Origin: a virus
IMG/VR virus record: IMGVR_UViG_3300032271_000682
Span: 25,796-89,795 of that record
DNA: 64,000 nt
Reading direction: 5' to 3' (one strand)
Part shown: piece by piece, positions 6,916 to 46,426 of the stretch
Layout: each line of letters starts with the position of its first letter
Numbering within the stretch: the stretch's first letter is position 1
Notes under the pieces: generated by a model
What the model saw: the letters and a program-made list of their open reading frames with translations, nothing else
Databases searched by the model: none
Told to the model about the DNA's origin: nothing
Position numbers and translations under genes: made by a program

Positions 6916-9900
6916 ATGATGATAGATAGAACAGAACAAAATCGTAGAAAGCAATTAAATGAAAGTGGTCATTGGGAAATTCCTGATAATTTAGATACTA
7001 GTAATTTTGATTTTAATTGGCGTCCACATGACAATGAAAGACCATATATACATCAATTCGGAACACAATGGCAACGAACTGGTGGACCAAGATATATAGT
7101 TTCTGAACACGAGGGAATCAAATATCAATCTGTTCAACATGCAATTAGACTTTCAGATACTAGCAACTTTAAAAAATTAATTGAAGAAGAAATTGAATTT
7201 GATTATAGTTGGCACCCAGACGATACAGAACCATCGCTAATATATATATTTGGTAATAAATGGAACGATCCAGCTACAGAACCAACTATTGAATATAGAT
7301 CAGAAAGTGCTACTGACTTAAAATACATGTCTGAGCCAATCGCCACAGTTTTTTCTAATTTACATAATTGGAAAATTTTAATCAAGGGTGCAACAATAGA
7401 CCAAAGCTGGAGACCTAACCCATTTGATCCTCCCTATATATATGTATTCGGTAATCAATGGAACGATCCAGCTACAGAACCAACTATTGAATATAGAGTA
7501 ACTGAGTTAGCAGTTGATAGAAAGTATATGAATAATATGATAGCTATTGTTCCGTCAACAACTGAAAATTGGCATATACTTATTGATGGAGCAACAATAG
7601 ACCAAAGCTGGAGACCTAACCCATTTGATCCTCCCTATATCTATGTATGGGGTAATCAATGGAACGATCCAGCTACAGAACCGACAATTGAATATAGAGT
7701 TTCGGGAGCCGTTGATAGAAAGTATATGAATAATATGATAGCTATTGTTCCGTCAACAACTGAAAATTGGACAGTGTTCGTAGAAGATGATTACAAAACT
7801 TTTGATTTTAGTTGGAGACCTAATCCGCACGCACCCTCTCAAATTTATCAATGGGAAAATAATGGTCCAATGTATACAATGAAAGATGCAGTTCATGTAT
7901 CATTGATGACTAGATCAGATATAAATCAAAGTAATGTGTCTAGATATAAAATAGAAACTACACTAGAACATCTGATTGAACAGCATCCAACTGAAGTATT
8001 CTGGGCACTAAACTCGGAACTGAATTACGATCAGTTTGATTTTAATTGGAGACCAACAGAAGAAAATTTTAGACATATTAATGTATTTGGAAATGCATTG
8101 AGCAAAGATGTAACTACATATTATGTAAATGGCCCAGCTTTTATTAAAGGATTCAGAGAATATAATTATATCGACAATCATCAAATTGAAATCACTACTG
8201 ATATTGATATGTTTTATATTATTAAAGGATCATCTATAGATCAATACGAAGAATTAAAACTACAGTTTCCTAAGTTACAAAAAACAAGATACTTAAACAG
8301 TTGGGTTGATACCATTAATCGTTGTGTTAAAAAAGCTACTACTAAGTTGATTTGGATACTTAGTAGTGAGGTTGATTATACTGACTTTAAGTTTGATTTT
8401 TATCCTACTACGTGGCAACGTAATATGATTCATGTATTTGGAACTCAATGGTCACACTGGGGTAATACCTATATGATTAACACTGAGACTTTTGAAGAAG
8501 ATACCAAATATGTTAAGATCATTGAACATTTAACAAATATTAATTTTGTAAGAAAACGTATAGCAAAGATTACTCAATGTCTTTATGACATTGTGTATAT
8601 AGATCATGGCAATGCTAGTATCTCACTAGATCAGCTCAAACAAAAATGTCCAAACAGTACAGTTACTATTTTAAAATATAACGATAGTTATCTTAAAACG
8701 TTAAGCAATTGGACATCAACGCTTAATGTATTTGAAATCAAGCAAGAGCATTATCTATGGGTATGTAGTAGCTTATGTGACTATAGTGAATTTGATTTTA
8801 CATGGGCTAGTGATCCATTTAAACAAGAACAATTACATGTGTTTTCTAGTAAGCTTGGAACTGACAGACAAAAATTTGGTGATACTTTTCTATTGAATTT
8901 AAATACATTCAAGAAAGAAGCAGAGTTTCTATCTAAGCTTGAAGATTATAGTTGTTCAATAGATTATATTGGACATATTTCTGCTCGTCGATTACCACAT
9001 CCAGTTATAGAACATGATCATGATAGTCAAGTTATTGCTATTAAAGAAATTAAAAACAGAACTTGGCCCTATTATGAATTAATTAATCGTGATAGCAAAC
9101 CAGTTAAAAATCAATTCATAGTGCCTAATATGTGGAATGTTCATGAAAGACAAGTACTAGTATCTAGTACTGGTGCAAGTAGAATTGTTGTTCCAGAAGT
9201 CGCTATAGATTATATTCACAGCGAAGTATATGATTATCATAATATTCAAGAAATGGATCAAGTTGATCAGTCTAAGCCATTGGATATAATATTTTTTAGT
9301 AATAATGAGCCAGCAGCAGAAGAGAATTTTATACATTTGTCTAATTTAGTAAAGAGTAAAAAACTATCAAACAAACTACACTGGGTCAAAAATGTTAGTG
9401 GCAGAGTAGCAAGCCAACACGCAGCTGCTAATACAAGTGAGACCAGTTGGTATTTCTTAGTCAATGGTAAACTTCGTATAAATGAAAAGTTTGACTTTAA
9501 TTGGCAACCAGATAGATTACAAAGAGCAAAGCATTACATATTCTCTGCTACTAATCCAGTCAATGGATTAGAATACGGTCATCAAGCAATAGTAGCCAAT
9601 AATCGAACATTGACATTGAATACTATTGTACAGGGATTAGATTTTACACTTGACAGTCCACACGAGGTTGTAGAGATGAATTGTGGAGTAGCAAGATTTA
9701 ATACTGACCCATGGACTACGTGGCGTACTGCGTTTCGAGAAGTAATCAAATTAAGTTGTAATACAGATGAAGCATCAGTCGAACGCTTACGTGCTTGGGT
9801 AAACATAGGCAATGGAGCGAACGGTGAATGGTCTATTAAAGGTGCACAAGACGCAGTATCATACTATGATAAAGTCAATGGCAATTTAACTGAACTTATG

Positions 9901-9954
9901 AAGAGTTATGACTGGCAATGGTTAGAAAAATTATATAAAAAACGTTATTGTTGA
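6916..9954 (+). CDS. Large repeat-containing protein with C-terminal glycosyltransferase-like domain
   Basis: Repeated F-D-F-x-W-x-P / YxFGNQW units; C-terminal DIIFFSNNEP...WRTAFRE region. Confidence 0.7.
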   Translation: MMIDRTEQNRRKQLNESGHWEIPDNLDTSNFDFNWRPHDNERPYIHQFGTQWQRTGGPRYIVSEHEGIKYQSVQHAIRLSDTSNFKKLIEEEIEFDYSWHPDDTEPSLIYIFGNKWNDPATEPTIEYRSESATDLKYMSEPIATVFSNLHNWKILIKGATIDQSWRPNPFDPPYIYVFGNQWNDPATEPTIEYRVTELAVDRKYMNNMIAIVPSTTENWHILIDGATIDQSWRPNPFDPPYIYVWGNQWNDPATEPTIEYRVSGAVDRKYMNNMIAIVPSTTENWTVFVEDDYKTFDFSWRPNPHAPSQIYQWENNGPMYTMKDAVHVSLMTRSDINQSNVSRYKIETTLEHLIEQHPTEVFWALNSELNYDQFDFNWRPTEENFRHINVFGNALSKDVTTYYVNGPAFIKGFREYNYIDNHQIEITTDIDMFYIIKGSSIDQYEELKLQFPKLQKTRYLNSWVDTINRCVKKATTKLIWILSSEVDYTDFKFDFYPTTWQRNMIHVFGTQWSHWGNTYMINTETFEEDTKYVKIIEHLTNINFVRKRIAKITQCLYDIVYIDHGNASISLDQLKQKCPNSTVTILKYNDSYLKTLSNWTSTLNVFEIKQEHYLWVCSSLCDYSEFDFTWASDPFKQEQLHVFSSKLGTDRQKFGDTFLLNLNTFKKEAEFLSKLEDYSCSIDYIGHISARRLPHPVIEHDHDSQVIAIKEIKNRTWPYYELINRDSKPVKNQFIVPNMWNVHERQVLVSSTGASRIVVPEVAIDYIHSEVYDYHNIQEMDQVDQSKPLDIIFFSNNEPAAEENFIHLSNLVKSKKLSNKLHWVKNVSGRVASQHAAANTSETSWYFLVNGKLRINEKFDFNWQPDRLQRAKHYIFSATNPVNGLEYGHQAIVANNRTLTLNTIVQGLDFTLDSPHEVVEMNCGVARFNTDPWTTWRTAFREVIKLSCNTDEASVERLRAWVNIGNGANGEWSIKGAQDAVSYYDKVNGNLTELMKSYDWQWLEKLYKKRYC
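7261..7770 (+). repeat. Intragenic tandem repeat, period about 198-201 bp
   Basis: tggaacgatccagctacagaacc at 7261, 7459 and 7660; 7390-7572 nearly identical to 7591-7770. Confidence 0.9.
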
Positions 9955-13007: not shown

Positions 13008-13036
13008 TTGACAATAACGATAAATACGTGTATACT
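13008..13036 (+). promoter_or_regulatory. tmRNA promoter: sigma70 with embedded late-type motif
   Basis: TTGACA(13008)-17-TATACT(13031); GATAAATAC at 13019-13027. Confidence 0.8.
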
Positions 13037-13042
13037 ATGTTT

Positions 13043-13440
13043 TTAAAGAATTGTTGTAAACCCTGAGTAATCAGGACAGAAGTAAAGAGAAAAGTGTCCA
13101 AGACGAGGGTTCGATTCCCTCCAGCTTCACCATAAAGGGATTACATGAATTACATTGACAATACAATAGTGCTTGAAAACGGCAGAACAGTACATTATAC
13201 AAAAGATGTATCTAAAATGTCGCTTAAAGAAGCTAATAAAATGTTAGTCACTATTAGAAAGTCTCTTTATGATGGGGCTGACCAGGTTTCGATTGGGCAA
13301 AGAGTAACGGAATGGACAACTCGACACAGATAGTCGTAAAAAGTAAACAACCAATAAATGCTAACGATGAAAATTGGGCATTAGCCGCTTGAAAAAGTTG
13401 CTTAGGGTAGGAAATACCTCGTAACAGAAAATACCAATAG
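13043..13440 (+). ncRNA. ssrA: Circularly permuted (two-piece) tmRNA; tag ANDENWALAA
   Basis: T-arm gagggTTCGATTccctc and CAGCTTC-A-CCA ending 13132 precede the 5' end GGGGCTG at 13274; tag frame 13360-13392. Confidence 0.93.
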
Positions 13441-13464
13441 GGACTTTCGAGTCCCTATTTTTTT
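13436..13464 (+). terminator. Intrinsic terminator after tmRNA
   Basis: aatagggact-ttcg-agtccctatt followed by T run. Confidence 0.9.
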
Positions 13465-22970: not shown

Positions 22971-25900
22971 ATGTCAGACATTAAAAAATTTATGGATATC
23001 ATGATGGAAACTACCGCTGGAGCAACCTCTAGTGGTTCAGTCGCTGAAGTATCTCAGCCAATGATGTCTACTCAACGAAGAGTAAATCCTAGTATCTATA
23101 CTAATCAAGCTTCAAAATCTGATGATCATTGTCCTGAGTGTAAATGTAATCCATGTGAATGTCATGAAGCAAGCAGAAAAGCTCCAACAGCACCAAAAGC
23201 AAAAGAATTTGGTTTATGGCAAAATAGCGTATTAGCTGGAAAAGCACAAAAAGATAAAAAAACTAAAAAAGAAACCAATGAATCAGTTAAAATTTTAAAA
23301 ACTACTAAAACTCCTACTGGTAAGCAAGTACAAGGAAATTACGGTCTAGATTATCAGCCGGAAGAAAAACTAGATATGTACGGGCACTCAATGAGAGGAA
23401 GTCCAAAGTTACATTCTCCTAGAATCCCTGACAATAAATATCCTGGACAAGGACCTGGACGCCCTGAAAATATTAGCTCAACTGATGCATTTGACGTTTT
23501 AAAAAAAGATCCATTTGGTCGTGACAGCAATATGACAGAAGATGATCTAGAAGAAGATTGGGAAGACATTAAGAATGCTGGTAAAAAAACAATTGGGGCT
23601 GGAGCAATAGGGTTAGCAGCATTAGGCGGAGGCGGAACGCAAGCACAAACCGTTCCTGCTAATACAGGTACAAACGTAGCTCAAACACAGTCGGTTTCAT
23701 CTAATGCAGCAATAGTAAAAAGTTTGGTGAATCCCGAGGCACGACAAAGATTCTTAAAACAACACTCGGATACTACGGCTCAATTAAAAGATCCAAAATA
23801 TGATCATAATCCAGATGCTTTAGCACAACATGCAACTTATCCTAAAGAACAACATAGTCAATATATACAAAATGTCAAGAATGTGGCAGAATTTCAAAAT
23901 CCCTATCAGATTATTCGCACTGCGTTAAACATGGCAGGATTAACTCCACAGGAAGTTTTACAAAATCTACCTAAAGGATACAAACTTCCATCAACAGAGC
24001 CTAAATCTGAGCCAGTGCGAATTCCAGGTGATCCAGGATACAAAGCACCGGTAAACGAATTTAAAAAATCTTCAAGAAATATTAATGAACTTGAATATGG
24101 TCAAGGTCAGCGCCAACTAAGATTAGCAGAAGTAGATGATAAAAGTGAACTAGATAGCTCTGGTATTCAAAGAATTATCAAAAAAATGGCGGCTAAACAT
24201 CAAGACGAAAAATGGACTAAAGAGCAGTTAGCTGCATTAGGTAAAAAATTAGCAGCGGCTGGTCGTAGAGAAGAAGAACGTAAGAATAAAAAGGGCGTTA
24301 AAGAAACAGCAAACAAACCTAAATCTCCAAATCGTAATGATCCATGGGAACAAGGTTGGTCTGCTGCTCATCGACTTCAAAGCAACTATGAGTGTCCATA
24401 TAAAAAAGGTACCGCTGAGTACGAGCGTTGGATGAATGGTTACGAAGAAGGCAGCTCACAACGTGGACATTATGATGAAAGTGTGAAGGAAGGCTCTGAT
24501 CAACAGTTAACGATTCAACAGTTAGCTACTATCAGTGACGAAGCATTAGACAATGCTTATCACTATGGTCGTAGCACACCGGGAAATACATTTGGTTGGC
24601 AGGCAAATTTAAAATCTGCTGCTTATGCTAAACAAATGATTGATAAGGGTATCACTGATATTGAAGCAATTAGTGACGCTATTCATAAAGGATGGAATGT
24701 TACTGCTAAAGCATTTGTACAAAATCCTGATAAATTTGACGACACAAAAAAATTAAAAGCAGCTGGCAAACTAGAAGCAAAACTTCAACAACGAGAAAAA
24801 TTGATGAACATTGGTTATAGTCAATTACCAGACGAAGAACAAGAAAAAGATCGTGTAGTTGCTAGAGCGTTATTACAAGCCATTACAGGTCAACAAGATA
24901 TGTCTGAAGCAGTAGAAGATCATACTAAAATCAAAGTTGATAGAATATCATCTAAATATCCAGGAACAAATATTTTAACTGGGAGTTCGTCCGTTCGTGT
25001 TGGAAGAAAGGGAAAATCTTCAATTGGAACATTTCCAACTTTTGAAATAGATGGACACAGATATATAACTCTTGCTGACGGAAATAAAATAGAAAGAGCG
25101 TTGAGACAAGATGTAGCGGAAGACCTAGAAGAAAGCAAACGCACAATGAGTCGTGCTGCTAAGGGTAATGAAAAGTATGGTAAAGATGGAATGCAGGCAT
25201 TAGCCAAAGCAGGTCGTGAAGGTAAAGATTTAGATAAAATCAGAGCCAAGTATAACAAATATGACGAAGACATTGAAGAAGGTTGGAGTCAAAAATACAA
25301 AAATTCAATCAACTGCTCACATCCTAAAGGATTTTCACAAAAAGCACATTGTGCAGGAAAAAAGAAACACAACGAATCAATAGAAATGGAAATGACTTGT
25401 GAAGATTGTGGTATGTGTAAAACACACGGAGATCATAATCACAACGCTCTTGATGAAGCCTGTTGGAAAGGTTATCACAAAGAAGGTATGAAAACTATGT
25501 TTGGAAAAGAATACCCTAACTGTAAAAAAAATAAAAATGAGAGTCTAGAAACTTATATTCGTAAAGGTGAGTGTCCTGGGTGTGGAGGATCAATGATTGC
25601 TGAAGGGCAATTAAACGAAAAACAAGATGCGTGTTATCACAAAGTAAAATCAAGATACAAAGTGTGGCCTAGTGCTTATGCGTCAGGAGCATTGGTTCAA
25701 TGTAGAAAAAAAGGTGCTGCCAATTGGGGTAACAGTACAAAAAAAGAATCCATTGATCTAGATGAAAATCTACATGACTGGTTCGGAAAAGAAAAATGGG
25801 TGCGTATGGATACGAAGGGCAACATAAAAGGCCCTTGCGCTAGAGGTTCAAAAAGTGAAGGTAAGCCCAAGTGCTTACCACAAAGCAAAGCACACAGTAT

Positions 25901-41157: not shown

Positions 41158-42378
41158 ATGACTCAAATATTACACTGCTCATTCTGCACTAAACACAAAA
41201 ATGCCGTTAAAAAATTAATTGTAGGCGAAAGTTCGGCAATCTGTGACGGTTGTATAACATATTGTACCGAATTGCTCATCACTGATGACGAAATCGATAA
41301 AATTTCTGAATCATCACATTCATCATTATATCCAGATGATATTAAACGATTCTTGGATGAGTACATAGTCGGACAAGATCACGCAAAGAAAATCATAAGT
41401 GTCGCCGTTTCTAATCATTACAAAAGAATCAATAATAAAAGCGACACCATAATACAAAAAAGCAACGTACTAATAGTTGGCCCAACTGGGTCTGGAAAAA
41501 CTCTGCTTGCTAAAACTGTAGCAAAATATCTAGACGTACCATTTGTAATCGCAGATGCCACCTCATTAACTGAGGCTGGATACGTTGGCGATGATGTCGA
41601 ATCAATGATCGGTAGACTAGTAGCAGCGGCTGGAGGCGACATTGAAAGAGCGCAACGAGGCATCGTATTCATTGATGAAATTGATAAAATTTCTAGAAAA
41701 TCAGAGGGCGCATCTATCACTCGTGATGTAAGCGGTGAAGGCGTTCAACAAGCTCTACTTAAATTAGTAGAAGGAACTGTTTGTAGAATTCCACAACGTG
41801 GCAGAAGAAAAAATCCTAGCCAAGAAATGCTAGAAGTAGATACTACTAACATTCTCTTTATTTCTGGCGGAGCTTTTGTTGGTCTTAAAGATATAGTTGC
41901 TAATCGTATTGATGGTAACAGTATTGGTTTTTCTGCCAATCTTTCAGATAAATCTCAAGATCAAAATTACTTAGAAAAACTAATGCCAGATGATCTGACT
42001 AAATTCGGAATGATACCAGAATTTACTGGTCGCTTTCCTAGTCTAGTCAGCATTACTGAACTTAATAAAGAACAACTAATTAGTATTCTTACTAGCGTAA
42101 AAAATAATTACATTCAACAGTATGTATATCTTCTTGGACTAGATAATATAGAATTGACTTTTGGTTCAGACGCAATAGATCAGATAGCAGAAAATTGTTT
42201 GAAATTAAAGACAGGCGCTCGTGGATTACATAGTGAGATTGAACGAGTATTACTACCACATATGTACGATGCTCAAAGTTACCAAAAGAACAATATAACT
42301 AAGATAAATATCACTAGAGAATTAGTTGACAAACCAAGAATATTAACAGAGGATGTAAATGAAGGTAATAAATCATAA
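41158..42378 (+). CDS. clpX: Clp protease ATP-binding subunit ClpX
   Basis: CSFC/CDGC Zn domain, [31 protein letters not shown] loop, TGARGL. Confidence 0.95.
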
Positions 42379-42565
42379 AGATAATTTTGAGCAAACGCTT
42401 AGAAAGTTTAAAAATAAAGTAGCTGATAGTGGATTACTAGAAGAAATACGCGCTCGTCAAACTTACGAAAAACCAACTACTACTAGAAAAGTAAAAGCAG
42501 CGAAAGCAAAGAGTCGTTGGAAGAAATACTTGCGTAGTCAAGAATTGCCTAAAAAATTGTATTGA
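42359..42565 (+). CDS. rpsU: Ribosomal protein bS21
   Basis: LRKFKNKV...[20 protein letters not shown]. Confidence 0.9.
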
Positions 42566-42585
42566 ACATATTTCAGGAAAATAGA

Positions 42586-43014
42586 ATGAATGATACTAAT
42601 GAATTTCGTAATTTAATCGATATTGTGGAATCAATTGATTCACGACCACAATATCGGGTTGGTCTTTGTGATGCTTTTGCAATAGCATTGCATCAATTAA
42701 CTAAACTACCACTTGGTGCATGGGTAGGAGAGTACTACGATGATTTTACAGAAGAAACTGAGTTAGAATACGCACACTTATGCGTAGTAGTTTCGTTTGA
42801 AAATAAAACGTGGATTGATGTGGATGGATTGCATAATGAATTACCTAAAAATATTCATTTCGACAATCAGATTGAAAGTATAAAACTCATTGCAGTGACG
42901 GAAAACGACGCAAGAGAAATATTTACCGTCGAAGATTTAGATGATGATATCGAAACAGCCAAAGATTTTATTCGATCAGATATGCTAATGAGACAAGTTA
43001 TCAATCAGTTATGA
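42586..43014 (+). CDS. Putative papain/transglutaminase-fold enzyme with leader
   Basis: GLCDAFAIAL (Cys), AHLCV (His), WIDVDG (Asp); leader EFRNLIDIVE. Confidence 0.5.
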   Translation: MNDTNEFRNLIDIVESIDSRPQYRVGLCDAFAIALHQLTKLPLGAWVGEYYDDFTEETELEYAHLCVVVSFENKTWIDVDGLHNELPKNIHFDNQIESIKLIAVTENDAREIFTVEDLDDDIETAKDFIRSDMLMRQVINQL

Positions 43015-43589
43015 TTCTTGTTTATATACATGGTGCTAATGCCACCGGAAATAGTTTCAATTACATTAGACAGCAGTTAAAGCATGATCACGAGCTAGTA
43101 ATAGAGTATGATAGTAAAGATGGATTTGAACATAATTTAGAGTCAATGAAATCTCAATTGAAAGATCATAAAGATATATTTTTTATATGTCATAGTCTTG
43201 GTGGTATATATGCCGTTCATCTAAGTGACTGGTTTTCTAATAATGTATTAGGTGCTGTGACATTAAGTACGCCGTACAATGGAGCAGAAATAGCAGATTA
43301 TGTCAAACATATGCTGCCATTCAATAAACTATTACGCGATATAGGAACTAATAGTGTCCCTATCAAGACATCTCTGAATATTACAATACAGCATCCATGG
43401 ACAAACATAGTAACTACTCAGGGTGTAAGTCCATGGGTAAATCAACCAAATGACGGAGTGGTTAGTATTAAAAGTATGACATATAGAGATGATATGGATT
43501 TGATTGAGATAAAATCAAATCACTATGAAGTGGTTCTTAGTCCAATTACTATAAATATTATTAAAGATACACTTAAAGAGATAAAATAA
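43011..43589 (+). CDS. Alpha/beta hydrolase
   Basis: IHG, CHSLGG nucleophile elbow, TPYNG, NDGVV, NHY. Confidence 0.88.
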   Translation: MILVYIHGANATGNSFNYIRQQLKHDHELVIEYDSKDGFEHNLESMKSQLKDHKDIFFICHSLGGIYAVHLSDWFSNNVLGAVTLSTPYNGAEIADYVKHMLPFNKLLRDIGTNSVPIKTSLNITIQHPWTNIVTTQGVSPWVNQPNDGVVSIKSMTYRDDMDLIEIKSNHYEVVLSPITINIIKDTLKEIK

Positions 43590-43652
43590 TAACATATCTT
43601 GACATTTGATTCAAGTATAAATATAATAGTGATACTACAAAGGAGATTTATT

Positions 43653-43769
43653 ATGTTTGAAATATTATTATGGCTTGCAGTAGGAGTATTTGTTGGGTGG
43701 AATTTCCCACAACCAGAATTTGCTAAAAATATTCAATCAAAACTTACTGGACTAATTAAAAGTAAATAG
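43653..43769 (+). CDS. Small membrane protein (38 aa)
   Basis: AGGAG RBS; MFEILLWLAVGVFVGWNFPQP. Confidence 0.65.
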   Translation: MFEILLWLAVGVFVGWNFPQPEFAKNIQSKLTGLIKSK

Positions 43770-43782
43770 AAGAGATAAAATA

Positions 43783-44346
43783 ATGGCAACTTGTCTGACA
43801 TGTAATAAAGAGTTTGAAATTCGTCCATGGTTCAAACAGTATTGCTCATCTGATTGTAAGGGTGCTATTAATGCAGGCATGCCGGCTTGGAATAAAGGTC
43901 TGAAAATGACTGATGAACAAAAGTCAAAAATGAATTTAGAAGGATTTAAATTGGGTTGGGGTTGGAATAAGGGTATACCAAATGAAATTGCTAGACAAAG
44001 AATGATCATTAATAACCCAAACAAAGATGGAAAGGTAAATAATTCTAGACCAAAAAAACTGATTGAAGATGAATTCATATTATATAAAAGAGAATGTAAG
44101 AAAGCAACTTATAGATCATGGTATAAAATGAAAAAAGAAGGATTGATTCCAGAAAATACTGGGAAAAGAAAAGATCAATTTCAACTTGATCATATTATCC
44201 CATTCAAACAAGGATTTGATTTGAAAATAGATCCTAGTATTATTGGTGGAATGAAAAACTTAAGATATATTTTAGGTGAAGATAATCGTAAAAAATGGGA
44301 TAGTTATCAGCCCATCAATGTTGTAACTAGTATTATAGGAGATTAA
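43783..44346 (+). mobile_element. Free-standing HNH homing endonuclease with NUMOD3-type repeats
   Basis: N-terminal CxxC...CxxxC; PAWNKGLK and GWNKGIP repeats; QLDHIIP...NL...N HNH core. Confidence 0.85.
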
Positions 44347-44347
44347 A

Positions 44348-44756
44348 ATGGCATATTCGGCTGCTGTACTGGATCATTATGAAAATCCAAGAAATGTAGG
44401 ATCATTTGATAAGGAGGAAATAGCGCAAGTGGGAACCGGCATGGTCGGTGCTCCCGCTTGCGGTTAACGGAGATGTAATGAAGTTACAAATCAAAGTCAT
44501 TGATGGAATTATTACAGATGCTAAGTTTAAAACATACGGGTGCGGTAGTGCCATTGCCAGTTCATCATTAGTCACTGAATGGGTCAAGGGAAAAACTCTT
44601 GATGAAGCAGCGACAATTAAAAACACTCAAATCGCTCAAGAACTCGCTCTTCCGCCGGTCAAGATTCACTGTTCAATACTTGCAGAAGATGCTATTAAAG
44701 CTGCTATAGCAGATTATAGGAAAAAGCATGATGTTATCTCTGAAGTATTGGCCTGA
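44348..44756 (+). CDS. iscU: Fe-S scaffold IscU, interrupted by a 7-nt insertion (stop + frame change) at 44465-44471
   Basis: Frame A 44348-44467 MAYSAAVLDHYENPRNVG...GAPACG*; frame +1 continues GDVMKLQ...FKTYGCGSAIASSS...LPPVKIHCSILAEDAI. Confidence 0.9.
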
Positions 44757-45219
44757 TCCAGTGCTATTAAAGCCATGTGCATTGTGGGACTTTAATAATC
44801 CCCCAGTTCAAACCGATTTTTTAATGGCTGACATGATAGAGACCATGGCTAAAAGTGGCGGCATAGGATTAGCTGCCAATCAAGTTGGGATATCATATCG
44901 TGTTATAACAATGCACATACAGGAAACTGACGAATATATTACAATGTTCAATCCAGAAATTGTATCAATCAGTGAGCATATGTATGTTGCTCGTGAAGGA
45001 TGTTTAAGTTTCCCACGAGTGATGATTGATGTTGAGAGACCAAAAACAGTAGAAGCAACTTGGATGAATAGAAATCAAAAACTTGAAACTAGAACATTCA
45101 GTGATATTGATGCTAAGTGTTTTCTACATGAAATTGATCACTTGAATGGGATTACGTTTAAGGATCATATTAGTCAACTTAAATTTGACAGAGCAGTTAA
45201 ACGGGCAAAGAAAAAATGA
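44728..45219 (+). CDS. def: Peptide deformylase
   Basis: GIGLAANQVG, EGCLSFP, HEIDHLNG. Confidence 0.95.
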   Translation: MMLSLKYWPDPVLLKPCALWDFNNPPVQTDFLMADMIETMAKSGGIGLAANQVGISYRVITMHIQETDEYITMFNPEIVSISEHMYVAREGCLSFPRVMIDVERPKTVEATWMNRNQKLETRTFSDIDAKCFLHEIDHLNGITFKDHISQLKFDRAVKRAKKK

Positions 45220-45542
45220 TTACTATTACTGAAACAGCAGCAAAGAAAATCGTTAGCAATATTGCTAAACGTGGACATGGTCAGGGCATTAAAGTTGGAG
45301 TAAAGACAACTGGGTGTAGTGGGCTTGCGTATGTATTAGAATATCTAGACGAAGCTCCTTGTACTTGGGACTGGATTCAATACGAGCGTGACGATGCACG
45401 AGTTTGGGTCAATCAAAAAGACTTGGTTTACATTGATGGTCTACAAATTGATTATGTGAAAAAAGGATTGAATGAAGGTTTTGATTTCACGAATCCCAAA
45501 GAATCTGCTAGATGTGGATGCGGAGAATCTTTTACAATTTGA
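45216..45542 (+). CDS. iscA: Fe-S assembly protein IscA/HesB
   Basis: TTGCSGLAY, CGCGESF. Confidence 0.93.
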   Translation: MITITETAAKKIVSNIAKRGHGQGIKVGVKTTGCSGLAYVLEYLDEAPCTWDWIQYERDDARVWVNQKDLVYIDGLQIDYVKKGLNEGFDFTNPKESARCGCGESFTI

Positions 45543-45618
45543 GTGATTATGTATAAATAATAATGTAAGATGCCGAATGGTCGGGTCTTATAAGTCATCT
45601 GCCTAACAGGAGAAAAAC

Positions 45619-46056
45619 ATGACAAGAACGCTAACTCTCAGAAGTCTGGACATTCCGTCCATTGCCAAATTCGGAATTGGTTTTGAAAATTCATTCGCTG
45701 AATTACTCAGATTATCCGAACAACAATCCAACACAAATTATCCACCGTATAATGTAGTCAGACAAACTGATGATAAGTTTTATATTGAAATTGCCACTGC
45801 TGGATTTACTCAGGGCGAAGTCAAAGTTGAACTTGACAATCAGTTATTGACAATTGTTGGTCAAAAATTGGATAATTCTACGGTAGAATATCTACATCAT
45901 GGTATATCCAATAGAAGTTTTGAAAGAGTTTTCAAATTGGGTGAATATGTAGAAGTAACTGATGCTCAACACAAAGATGGAATTCTTACTATCTATTTGG
46001 AACGACATATTCCGGAAGCAATGAAGCCAAAAACGATTGACATTAAGTATATTTGA
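45619..46056 (+). CDS. Small heat-shock protein (Hsp20/IbpA-like)
   Basis: NYPPYNV, EIATAGF, YLHHGISNRSFER, DGIL. Confidence 0.93.
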   Translation: MTRTLTLRSLDIPSIAKFGIGFENSFAELLRLSEQQSNTNYPPYNVVRQTDDKFYIEIATAGFTQGEVKVELDNQLLTIVGQKLDNSTVEYLHHGISNRSFERVFKLGEYVEVTDAQHKDGILTIYLERHIPEAMKPKTIDIKYI

Positions 46057-46120
46057 TAGTATAATAAATACTATTGTGAGTGGTAATTTGCCACTCACAT
46101 CAACTTCTCAAGGATTCAAT

Positions 46121-46426
46121 ATGAGCAAAACTGAAATTATCACAAAATTAAAACCAAATCTGAATATTTCAGAGCCTTCATTTTATAAAGTATTTTACAT
46201 CAATGATGACGTTACAACAATGGAGTTTGTTGTTGAATCATTGATTCAATATTTTGATCATACTGAAGATAGTGCCCTTAATTTAACTAGTAGCATACAC
46301 GATAGTGGTAGCGCAGTAGTTGCTATATTACCATATGAACTTGCTGAACAGCGTGGTATAGAAGTCACTATTGATGCTCGTAGACAAGGATATCCACTTG
46401 AAGTCAAGATCGAAGCAGAAGGTTAA
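46121..46426 (+). CDS. clpS: Clp adaptor ClpS
   Basis: YKVFYINDDVTTMEFVV, IHDSGSAVV, GYPL. Confidence 0.9.
   Translation: MSKTEIITKLKPNLNISEPSFYKVFYINDDVTTMEFVVESLIQYFDHTEDSALNLTSSIHDSGSAVVAILPYELAEQRGIEVTIDARRQGYPLEVKIEAEG

Follow-up and report, generated by a model that had tools for sequence, protein, structure and literature searches.

The iscU gene of the viral DNA analysed here is interrupted, inside its conserved Cys-Gly-Asp ligand motif, by a few bases that begin with a stop codon. We consider it quite probable, judging from comparative data, that these bases belong to a mobile cassette and that the ribosome crosses them by a programmed hop from one Gly codon to another, through which full-length IscU would still be made.

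The window (the whole stretch of 64,000 nucleotides analysed, positions 25,796 to 89,795 of the IMG/VR record IMGVR_UViG_3300032271_000682) comes from an 89.8-kb virus record estimated to be 26% complete, so that it is a fragment of a jumbo (giant) phage. Membership of the interrupted gene in the IscU/NifU-N family is indicated by DNA matches to phage genes annotated as iscU or NifU-like, and the ligand motifs C-G-D, G-C-G-S and H-C are all recognisable across its two halves. The features of the locus and its neighbours are as follows.

41158-42378: ClpX-like ORF, identified by eye.
43783-44346, plus strand: free-standing nuclease ORF of 187 aa, a probable HNH homing endonuclease by synteny, motifs and fold.
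44348-44464, plus strand: N-part of iscU, from Met to the take-off Gly, 39 codons with the first Cys ligand, from ORF translation.
44411-44417, plus strand: Shine-Dalgarno-like (SD-like) motif AAGGAGG just 5' of the hairpin, recognised by conservation of SD-like 5-mers.
44425-44461, plus strand: hairpin of 37 nt, with an outer helix (44425-44434/44452-44461) and an inner helix (44435-44440/44444-44449).
44462-44464, plus strand: take-off Gly codon GGT, which is GGN in 75/75 interrupted genes.
44465-44468, plus strand: non-coding gap, read from the sequence as stop TAA and spacer C.
44469-44471, plus strand: landing Gly codon GGA, after which decoding would restart at GAT 44472.
44472-44756, plus strand: C-part of iscU with the Asp ligand, ...YGCGSAIASS..., ...PPVKIHCS... 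and stop TGA, from translation.
44728-45219: peptide deformylase, Pfam 2e-43.
45216-45542: IscA/HesB-like ORF, Pfam 3e-15.

The initial annotation had read the junction at 44459-44474 as TGC GGT TAA C GGA GAT, and these letters are correct. The N-part ORF with its stop occupies 44348-44467 and encodes 39 aa ending in ...GAPACG before TAA, while the C-part runs in the +1 frame relative to it from GGA 44469 to TGA 44754-44756 and starts with GDVMKLQ.... Both halves are thus intact, as had been claimed, and a 7-nt skip would join 39 and 94 residues into a protein of 133 aa. The motif GGAG at 44469-44472, which lies 5 nt before ATG 44478, is also present as described. A further position that proved to be interrupted in some relatives (site 2, 44652-44671) is uninterrupted in the window.

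Genes for proteostasis and Fe-S functions form a cluster around iscU (41158-46426), in which Hsp20-like and ClpS-like ORFs were also identified by eye. Elsewhere in the window (13029-13461, plus strand) there is a permuted tmRNA gene of betaproteobacterial type (Rfam beta_tmRNA 103 bits, tmRNA_permuted 94 bits), for which ARAGORN gives the tag VKSKQPINANDENWALAA; the type of this gene hints at a betaproteobacterial host. A search for tRNA genes found none in the window, so that no phage tRNA-Gly is encoded within it.

The same junction occurs, with a 100% identical N-part, on the independent contig L101 (metagenome 3300042430), and copies 94-95% identical are present in three other metagenomes (L016/L082, L115 and L113). 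The assembly error that had been entertained as an explanation is contradicted by this repeated finding, and the interruption is, as far as these independent contigs tell, real.

Relatives of the window IscU are encoded on more than 597 viral contigs, the majority of which have a continuous gene (...GAPACGDVMKLQ...). Among the first 80 loci fetched, 7 were interrupted at the same codon, with five junction sequences of which one was that of the window. After two pattern scans of IMG/VR, the second of which demanded a stop after the Gly codon, the sample comprised 143 distinct iscU genes, 68 continuous and 75 interrupted. All 75 are broken at the same Cys-Gly|Asp codon, a recurrence in distinct genes that is far beyond chance. 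The initial annotation had asked whether a GGN-stop-N-GGN insert recurs in related phages; it was found in 25 junction classes.

When the distance is counted between the take-off Gly codon and the Gly codon before Asp-Val, it is 6 nt in 3 genes, 7 nt in 39, 8 nt in 16, 9 nt in 13 and 10 nt in 4, and all three reading frames are represented. The non-coding gap is accordingly 3-7 nt across the family and 4 nt in the window. Since the distances span all three frames, neither one type of frameshift nor readthrough can serve all the genes, whereas a Gly-to-Gly hop gives ...APACGDV... in every one of them. On the nuclease tree there are at least seven changes of gap length, and close sisters differ in frame (6 versus 8 nt; 7 versus 8 versus 9 nt). 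Evidently nothing ties the gap to one frame, as is expected of a gap that is not read.

The place of the stop was assessed by a further scan without a stop requirement, in which only the cassette-type N-part served as query and which returned 82 distinct contexts. In 69 of them the take-off codon is immediately followed by a stop; 7 are ordinary continuous genes without the hairpin; 2 (L338 and L339) retain the hairpin without insert and without nuclease, as after a "hit and run"; 3 (L337, L346 and L348) read GGT TGT T GGA, in which a sense codon replaces the stop and the halves are intact; and 1 (L357) reads GGT TGT TGA C GAT, has no Gly landing codon and keeps a nuclease remnant only. The stop therefore adjoins the take-off codon in 69/73 insert-bearing genes of the cassette type, which makes it a rule, although not an absolute one. 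TAA, TAG and TGA replace each other among the genes, so that it is the stop as such that is retained. In the four genes without the adjoining stop the C-part is open in the +1 frame, and these genes are exceptions to the hop rule. The stop is followed by C in 43/75 interrupted genes, including that of the window; Poole, Brown and Tate are said to have found in 1995 that C gives the weakest termination context in E. coli.

The codons GGT and GGA are normally decoded by different tRNAs, and the initial annotation had held this against a hop in the window. The statement on the tRNAs stands, while in practice it appears to be no obstacle: take-off and landing codons share their first two bases (GG) in 75/75 genes, the third base is identical in 7/25 classes only, and the window pair GGT/GGA is among the non-identical ones. 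A strict match of the third base was consequently rejected as a requirement, and two-of-three codon-anticodon pairing appears to suffice. In 21/25 junction classes the landing codon is the first GG past the stop; in the other four GGG overlaps GGC, and take-off and landing codons are decoded by the same tRNA.

The hairpin stops with its 3' arm at the base preceding the take-off codon, the spacing being 0 nt. A helix of 9-10 bp is present at -37 to -1 in 75/75 interrupted genes, in comparison with 4-7 bp in continuous genes, and the minimum free energies are -21.2 versus -12.0 kcal/mol (p=3e-24). In 36 distinct interrupted sequences 95.3% of cells are paired, and the covariation score of 0.248 exceeds that of shuffles (0.131; 0/500 shuffles reach it); slid registers give at most 42% pairing. 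Pair 7-37 is represented by CG in 18 sequences, AU in 15, UA in 2 and GC in 1, pair 10-34 by five pair types, and in both pairs every cell is paired. In 67 continuous genes pairing over these columns is 61.4%, which is the shuffle level. The compensating positions are third codon positions, so that the protein is left unchanged. The hairpin thus belongs to the cassette, is missing from continuous genes and is maintained by compensatory changes. An SD-like 5-mer is present at -52 to -38 in 75/75 interrupted genes versus 9/68 continuous ones (p=6e-31), and this motif, located 44-51 nt upstream of the take-off codon, may act in the hop.

Selection on the interrupted gene was estimated separately for its two parts, both of which are open in 75/75 genes. 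The pN/pS values are 0.24 for the N-part and 0.20 for the C-part, close to 0.18 and 0.16 in the continuous genes, and lie at 0.14-0.34 within single junction classes. Purifying selection acts on both halves of iscU, and it is also evident in 18 loci that have no nuclease. Just past the gap, the codons GGN GAY GTN vary only synonymously in 75/75 genes, which means that they are translated in the frame of the C-part. The codon after Asp-Val (44478-44480 in the window) is Met in 68/68 continuous genes and Leu in 17/75 interrupted ones; this change may reflect selection against internal initiation beside the SD-like GGAG.

The ORF that ends 1 nt ahead of the iscU start connects the insert with a probable mobile element. 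A homolog of it abuts or overlaps the iscU start on the same strand in 57/75 interrupted and 0/68 continuous genes (Fisher p=5e-24), and no locus has the nuclease without the insert. At the interrupted loci the nuclease can be reduced to a remnant, completely lost or, in one case, replaced; 18 loci lack it, and most of these have the usual neighbour gene directly beside iscU. Its sequence has an N-terminal CxxC...CxxxC, two WNKG (NUMOD3-like) repeats and a C-terminal Q-x-DHIIP...N...N-R-x-K-W, with D136, H137, N159 and N168 invariant in 32 nuclease sequences. Two structure aligners rank HNH nucleases at the top, with modest scores (4h9d Z 4.8, 5h0o Z 3.7; Foldseek E>0.4). In Pfam no match reaches the curated threshold, the HNH family being found at E=0.027, below the cut-off, and at E<=0.01 in 2/32 members; a PDB sequence-profile search returned nothing relevant, and the best PHROGs match is a family of unknown function. 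Its relatives in GenBank phages share the C-terminal domain only and are annotated as hypothetical. Motifs and predicted fold taken together, the 187-aa ORF is a probable HNH homing endonuclease.

At one locus (L120, with the insert GGT TAA C GGA) a GIY-YIG-like ORF (MMFYVYAYIGNSGKPYYIGKGKNRR...) overlaps the iscU start by 11 nt in the usual place of the HNH-like ORF, by which the nuclease appears to have been replaced.

The IscU protein tree, in which interrupted and continuous genes are interspersed, is too short to resolve origins, and nearest neighbours and gradients of identity were used instead. In the N-part, 75/75 interrupted genes have another interrupted gene as their closest neighbour at the nucleotide level, and identity is 0.753 among interrupted genes versus 0.678 between interrupted and continuous ones. 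Downstream of the insert the identity among interrupted genes is not above that with continuous genes, relative to which the C-part is mosaic. Such a pattern is the one that homing with co-conversion would be expected to leave. Altogether the comparisons show that the nuclease, the recoded N-part, the SD-like motif, the hairpin and the insert are co-inherited as a cassette.

A second cassette is found at another ligand motif of the same gene. In six interrupted genes the C-part is cut short by another insert that begins with a stop and lies inside ...ELALPP|VKIHCS..., and the scans revealed this second insert in 19 loci (for example L324:1622-1690, L149, L094, L132, L182, L331, L335 and L336). 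The take-off codon here is a Pro codon and the junctions read CCN TAA/TAG CTN, with one matched CCG TAA CCG; other lengths are represented by CCG TGA CG|GTT (shift 5) and CCC TA|GTC (shift 2), so that the shifts are 2, 5 and 9 nt. At least 8 of the 19 loci have no interruption at site 1, and hence the two sites are independent. A hairpin of 45 nt ends at position -1 of the take-off Pro codon; its minimum free energy is -21.0 versus -4.9 kcal/mol in 133 genes without the insert, and pairing in its outer helix reaches 98.5%, GC/CG and GC/AU compensations being present. Just downstream of iscU there is an ORF of about 243 aa with a weak DUF559/Vsr-like match, present in 11/19 site-2 loci and as one partial copy among about 190 other loci. 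By these features the site-2 cassette is of the same design as that of site 1 with a different, putatively Vsr-like, nuclease. A CUN landing codon pairs with the Pro anticodon via a central G-U, and this fit argues for tRNA re-pairing over realignment of an RNA:DNA hybrid.

L338 (2954-4387, minus strand), which keeps the site-1 hairpin without insert and nuclease, has an iscU of 478 aa whose second Cys ligand bears the signature of an intein (...KTYG|C...HN|CGSAIASS...). With sites 1 and 2 and this intein, all three ligand motifs of IscU are targeted by selfish elements.

In the explanation that we prefer, the seven bases would be part of a cassette with three components: the nuclease gene at 43783-44346, a recoded stretch of iscU (codons 1-39) in which the SD-like motif and the 37-nt hairpin are embedded, and a short insert, beginning with a stop, within the Cys-Gly|Asp codons. 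If T4 mobA and gene 60 are taken as the model, the target site of the nuclease is most likely split by the insert, by which the carrier genome would be spared, while genomes with continuous iscU would be cut and converted. During translation the ribosome would pause at the stop TAA in its A site, with GGT still paired to peptidyl-tRNA-Gly; the comparative data suggest that the peptidyl-tRNA then releases GGT, slides over 7 nt, re-pairs on GGA and resumes at GAT. At the pause the 3' arm of the hairpin (10 nt) should lie inside the ribosome, which the 5' arm and the inner helix should by then have left. If the outer helix zips up on the exiting mRNA, it could draw the mRNA forward by up to about 10 nt, a pull comparable to the observed hop distances of 6-10 nt, and peptidyl-tRNA-Gly would re-pair on the first GG that it meets. 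A 5' stem-loop forming on the exiting mRNA was proposed to drive bypassing in T4 gene 60 (Manning & Atkins, preprint 10.1101/2022.08.31.505936). The nuclease ORF, the hairpin and the SD-like motif, which the initial annotation had overlooked, may thus account both for the existence of the insert and for a possible drive of the hop. The programmed Gly-to-Gly hop proposed in the initial annotation is, in this sense, supported by the comparison of the family.

Four other explanations were weighed against this one. A +1 frameshift at GGT-TAA, a shifty stop like that of prfB, would give ...CGNGDV... with two extra residues. It agrees with the +1 frame of the C-part in the window, with the stop in the A site followed by C, which is a classic setting for +1 shifts, and with L357 and genes of the L337 type, where the +1 frame is open without a stop or without a Gly landing codon. 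As a general explanation it fails, since it fits the distances 7 and 10 only, and at 10 nt it would add three residues; the 8-nt relatives call for +2/-1 and those with 6 and 9 nt for the zero frame, and sister cassettes do not agree in frame. Moreover, tRNA-Gly cannot re-pair at +1 (GGT T to GTT), a residue N, D, R or E would be added inside an otherwise invariant ligand motif, and the SD-like motif that prfB has 3 nt upstream is missing. We regard the frameshift as improbable. A split IscU, in which translation terminates after 39 aa, the C-part is started apart (from GGAG and ATG 44478 or from a split ribosome-binding site bridged by the hairpin) and the pieces assemble, is still less credible to us. 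The GGAG close to the ATG, the retention of this ATG in 58/75 genes and the possibility that the SD-like motif and the hairpin bring a ribosome-binding site near the junction speak for it. The initial annotation had named re-initiation at the ATG as an alternative, and this breaks down as a general explanation in 14/75 genes, where no ATG, GTG or TTG stands in frame up to 8 codons from the landing site. In addition, the change from Met to Leu is confined to interrupted genes (17/75 versus 0/68), the synonymous variation before the ATG indicates translation there in the C-part frame, and the conserved Asp ligand would be lost.

Removal of the insert before translation, by hairpin-guided RNA processing or by an RNA polymerase that skips the gap, would explain why a strong hairpin ends exactly at the junction. 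The stop after the take-off codon in 69/73 genes would then have no role, the 2-3 re-pairing bases are too few for polymerase realignment, the CTN landing codon of site 2, acceptable to the Pro anticodon as G-U, is a mismatch in an RNA:DNA hybrid, and there is no conserved 3' boundary, the gap length being variable; we give this explanation the same very low credence as the split protein. Finally, the selfish insert might have killed iscU, leaving a pseudogene maintained only by the super-Mendelian spread of the nuclease. The insert does place a stop in a ligand motif, and homing elements can spread despite their cost. This contrasts with both halves being open in all interrupted genes under a pN/pS of about 0.2, also within junction classes, with the persistence of this constraint in the 18 loci that lost the nuclease, and with the compensatory maintenance of the hairpin. 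The earlier suspicion of an insert unique to this genome, that is, of a recent pseudogene, is refuted by the 75 distinct interrupted genes, and we consider a dead gene very improbable. The programmed hop within a mobile cassette thus remains the preferred explanation.

Outside the iscU family, a scan of the 89.8-kb record for a hairpin, a stop and re-pairing revealed no other credible site, the reversed-sequence control giving 3 hits. A hit at 7496 of the window was rejected as a false positive lying in an alternate frame of the ORF 6916-9954 (plus strand, 1012 aa), a protein with near-identical tandem repeats (...WRPNPFDPPYIYVFGNQWNDPATEPTIEYR...). In cellular genomes the upstream-anchored pattern was found at 120 loci or more, with no relative of iscU or of the nuclease among the matches listed.

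To our knowledge, programmed bypassing in bacteria and phages is represented by essentially one well-studied natural example, T4 gene 60 with its homologs, and shorter natural counterparts have long been expected in the field. A literature search on iscU with bypassing or a homing endonuclease and on recent bypass papers did not find the present system, and the site-2 cassette is newly described here. As judged from sequence comparison, the iscU arrangement is most likely a miniature natural counterpart of the T4 gene 60 bypass.

The bypass of T4 gene 60 is carried by an element of the HNH homing endonuclease MobA (Huang 1988; Bonocora 2011; Manning & Atkins preprint): MobA and the gap form one mobile element, in which the insert blocks self-nicking. 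Both systems have a Gly take-off codon with a stop in the A site, an SD-like element and a 5' stem-loop upstream of the take-off codon; in T4 the tRNA re-pairs on a later Gly codon, as it would in iscU. In both the insert sits where the target gene is strongly conserved, and it is passed on together with a free-standing nuclease gene. Nuclease remnants, loss of the nuclease with the insert kept, replacement by another family and "hit and run" cases are also common to the MobA element and the iscU cassette. The differences concern primarily the scale, the gap being 3-7 nt in iscU versus 50 nt in T4 gene 60 (20 in one clade), too short to hold the stem-loop of the A site and take-off codon that is found in T4. 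The hairpin adjoins the take-off codon in iscU (0 nt) and lies 9 nt from it in T4, and the third bases of the take-off and landing codons often differ in iscU, unlike T4. The target is iscU instead of a topoisomerase and has not been divided into a pair of genes extended by tails, and, as far as indirect comparison goes, the 187-aa nuclease has no detected similarity to MobA.

Synthetic "stop-hops" in E. coli with shifts of +2, +5 and +6 (Weiss, Dunn, Atkins and Gesteland 1987, reviewed in PMC5009743) are alike in that peptidyl-tRNA leaves a codon adjacent to a stop and re-pairs on a matched codon a few nucleotides downstream. These unprogrammed events are inefficient, and the same review, from 2016, knew of no natural in-frame stop-hop (PMC5009743); the 6- and 9-nt forms of iscU would be in-frame stop-hops. 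In contrast to these low-level events in constructs without stimulators, the putative iscU event is conserved, has a dedicated hairpin and would be required to make the whole protein.

Ribosomes also skip short stretches within genes in the byps of Magnusiomyces capitatus mitochondria and in the candidate bypass of Streptomyces phage terminase genes (PMC5009743, PMC10732093), both of which have, as iscU does, an imperfect match of take-off and landing with two-of-three pairing; the phage candidate also has an SD-like motif 5' of its short gap. Unlike the iscU inserts, byps are 27-55 nt long and self-mobile, and they depend on a relaxed mitochondrial system in which the A-site codon is unused; the Streptomyces phage case hinges on the rare UUA codon, and neither has a link to homing endonucleases. 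Inteins and group I introns resemble the iscU cassette as selfish nucleases that invade conserved active-site codons with an interruption that is later removed, leaving the host protein whole; their removal occurs by RNA or protein splicing, while in iscU an interruption of 3-7 nt would be removed by the ribosome in translation.

[quoted passage not shown] Such a module would work with Gly and Pro tRNAs and would be used by at least three homing-endonuclease families (HNH-like, Vsr-like and GIY-YIG) as a third route, beside introns and inteins, into active-site codons without killing the host gene.

The family provides dozens of natural variants, with five gap lengths, three stops, two take-off amino acids and two covarying hairpins, which are a ready-made mutational series for the release of the ribosome, the distance of the hairpin pull and the strictness of landing. 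In present annotation, genes of this kind are called two fragments or pseudogenes. The arrangement also suggests how selfish nucleases enter the most conserved codons with a footprint of only 3-7 nt. If the notion of a portable module is true, short-range bypassing would be a recurrent natural mechanism and not an oddity of T4.
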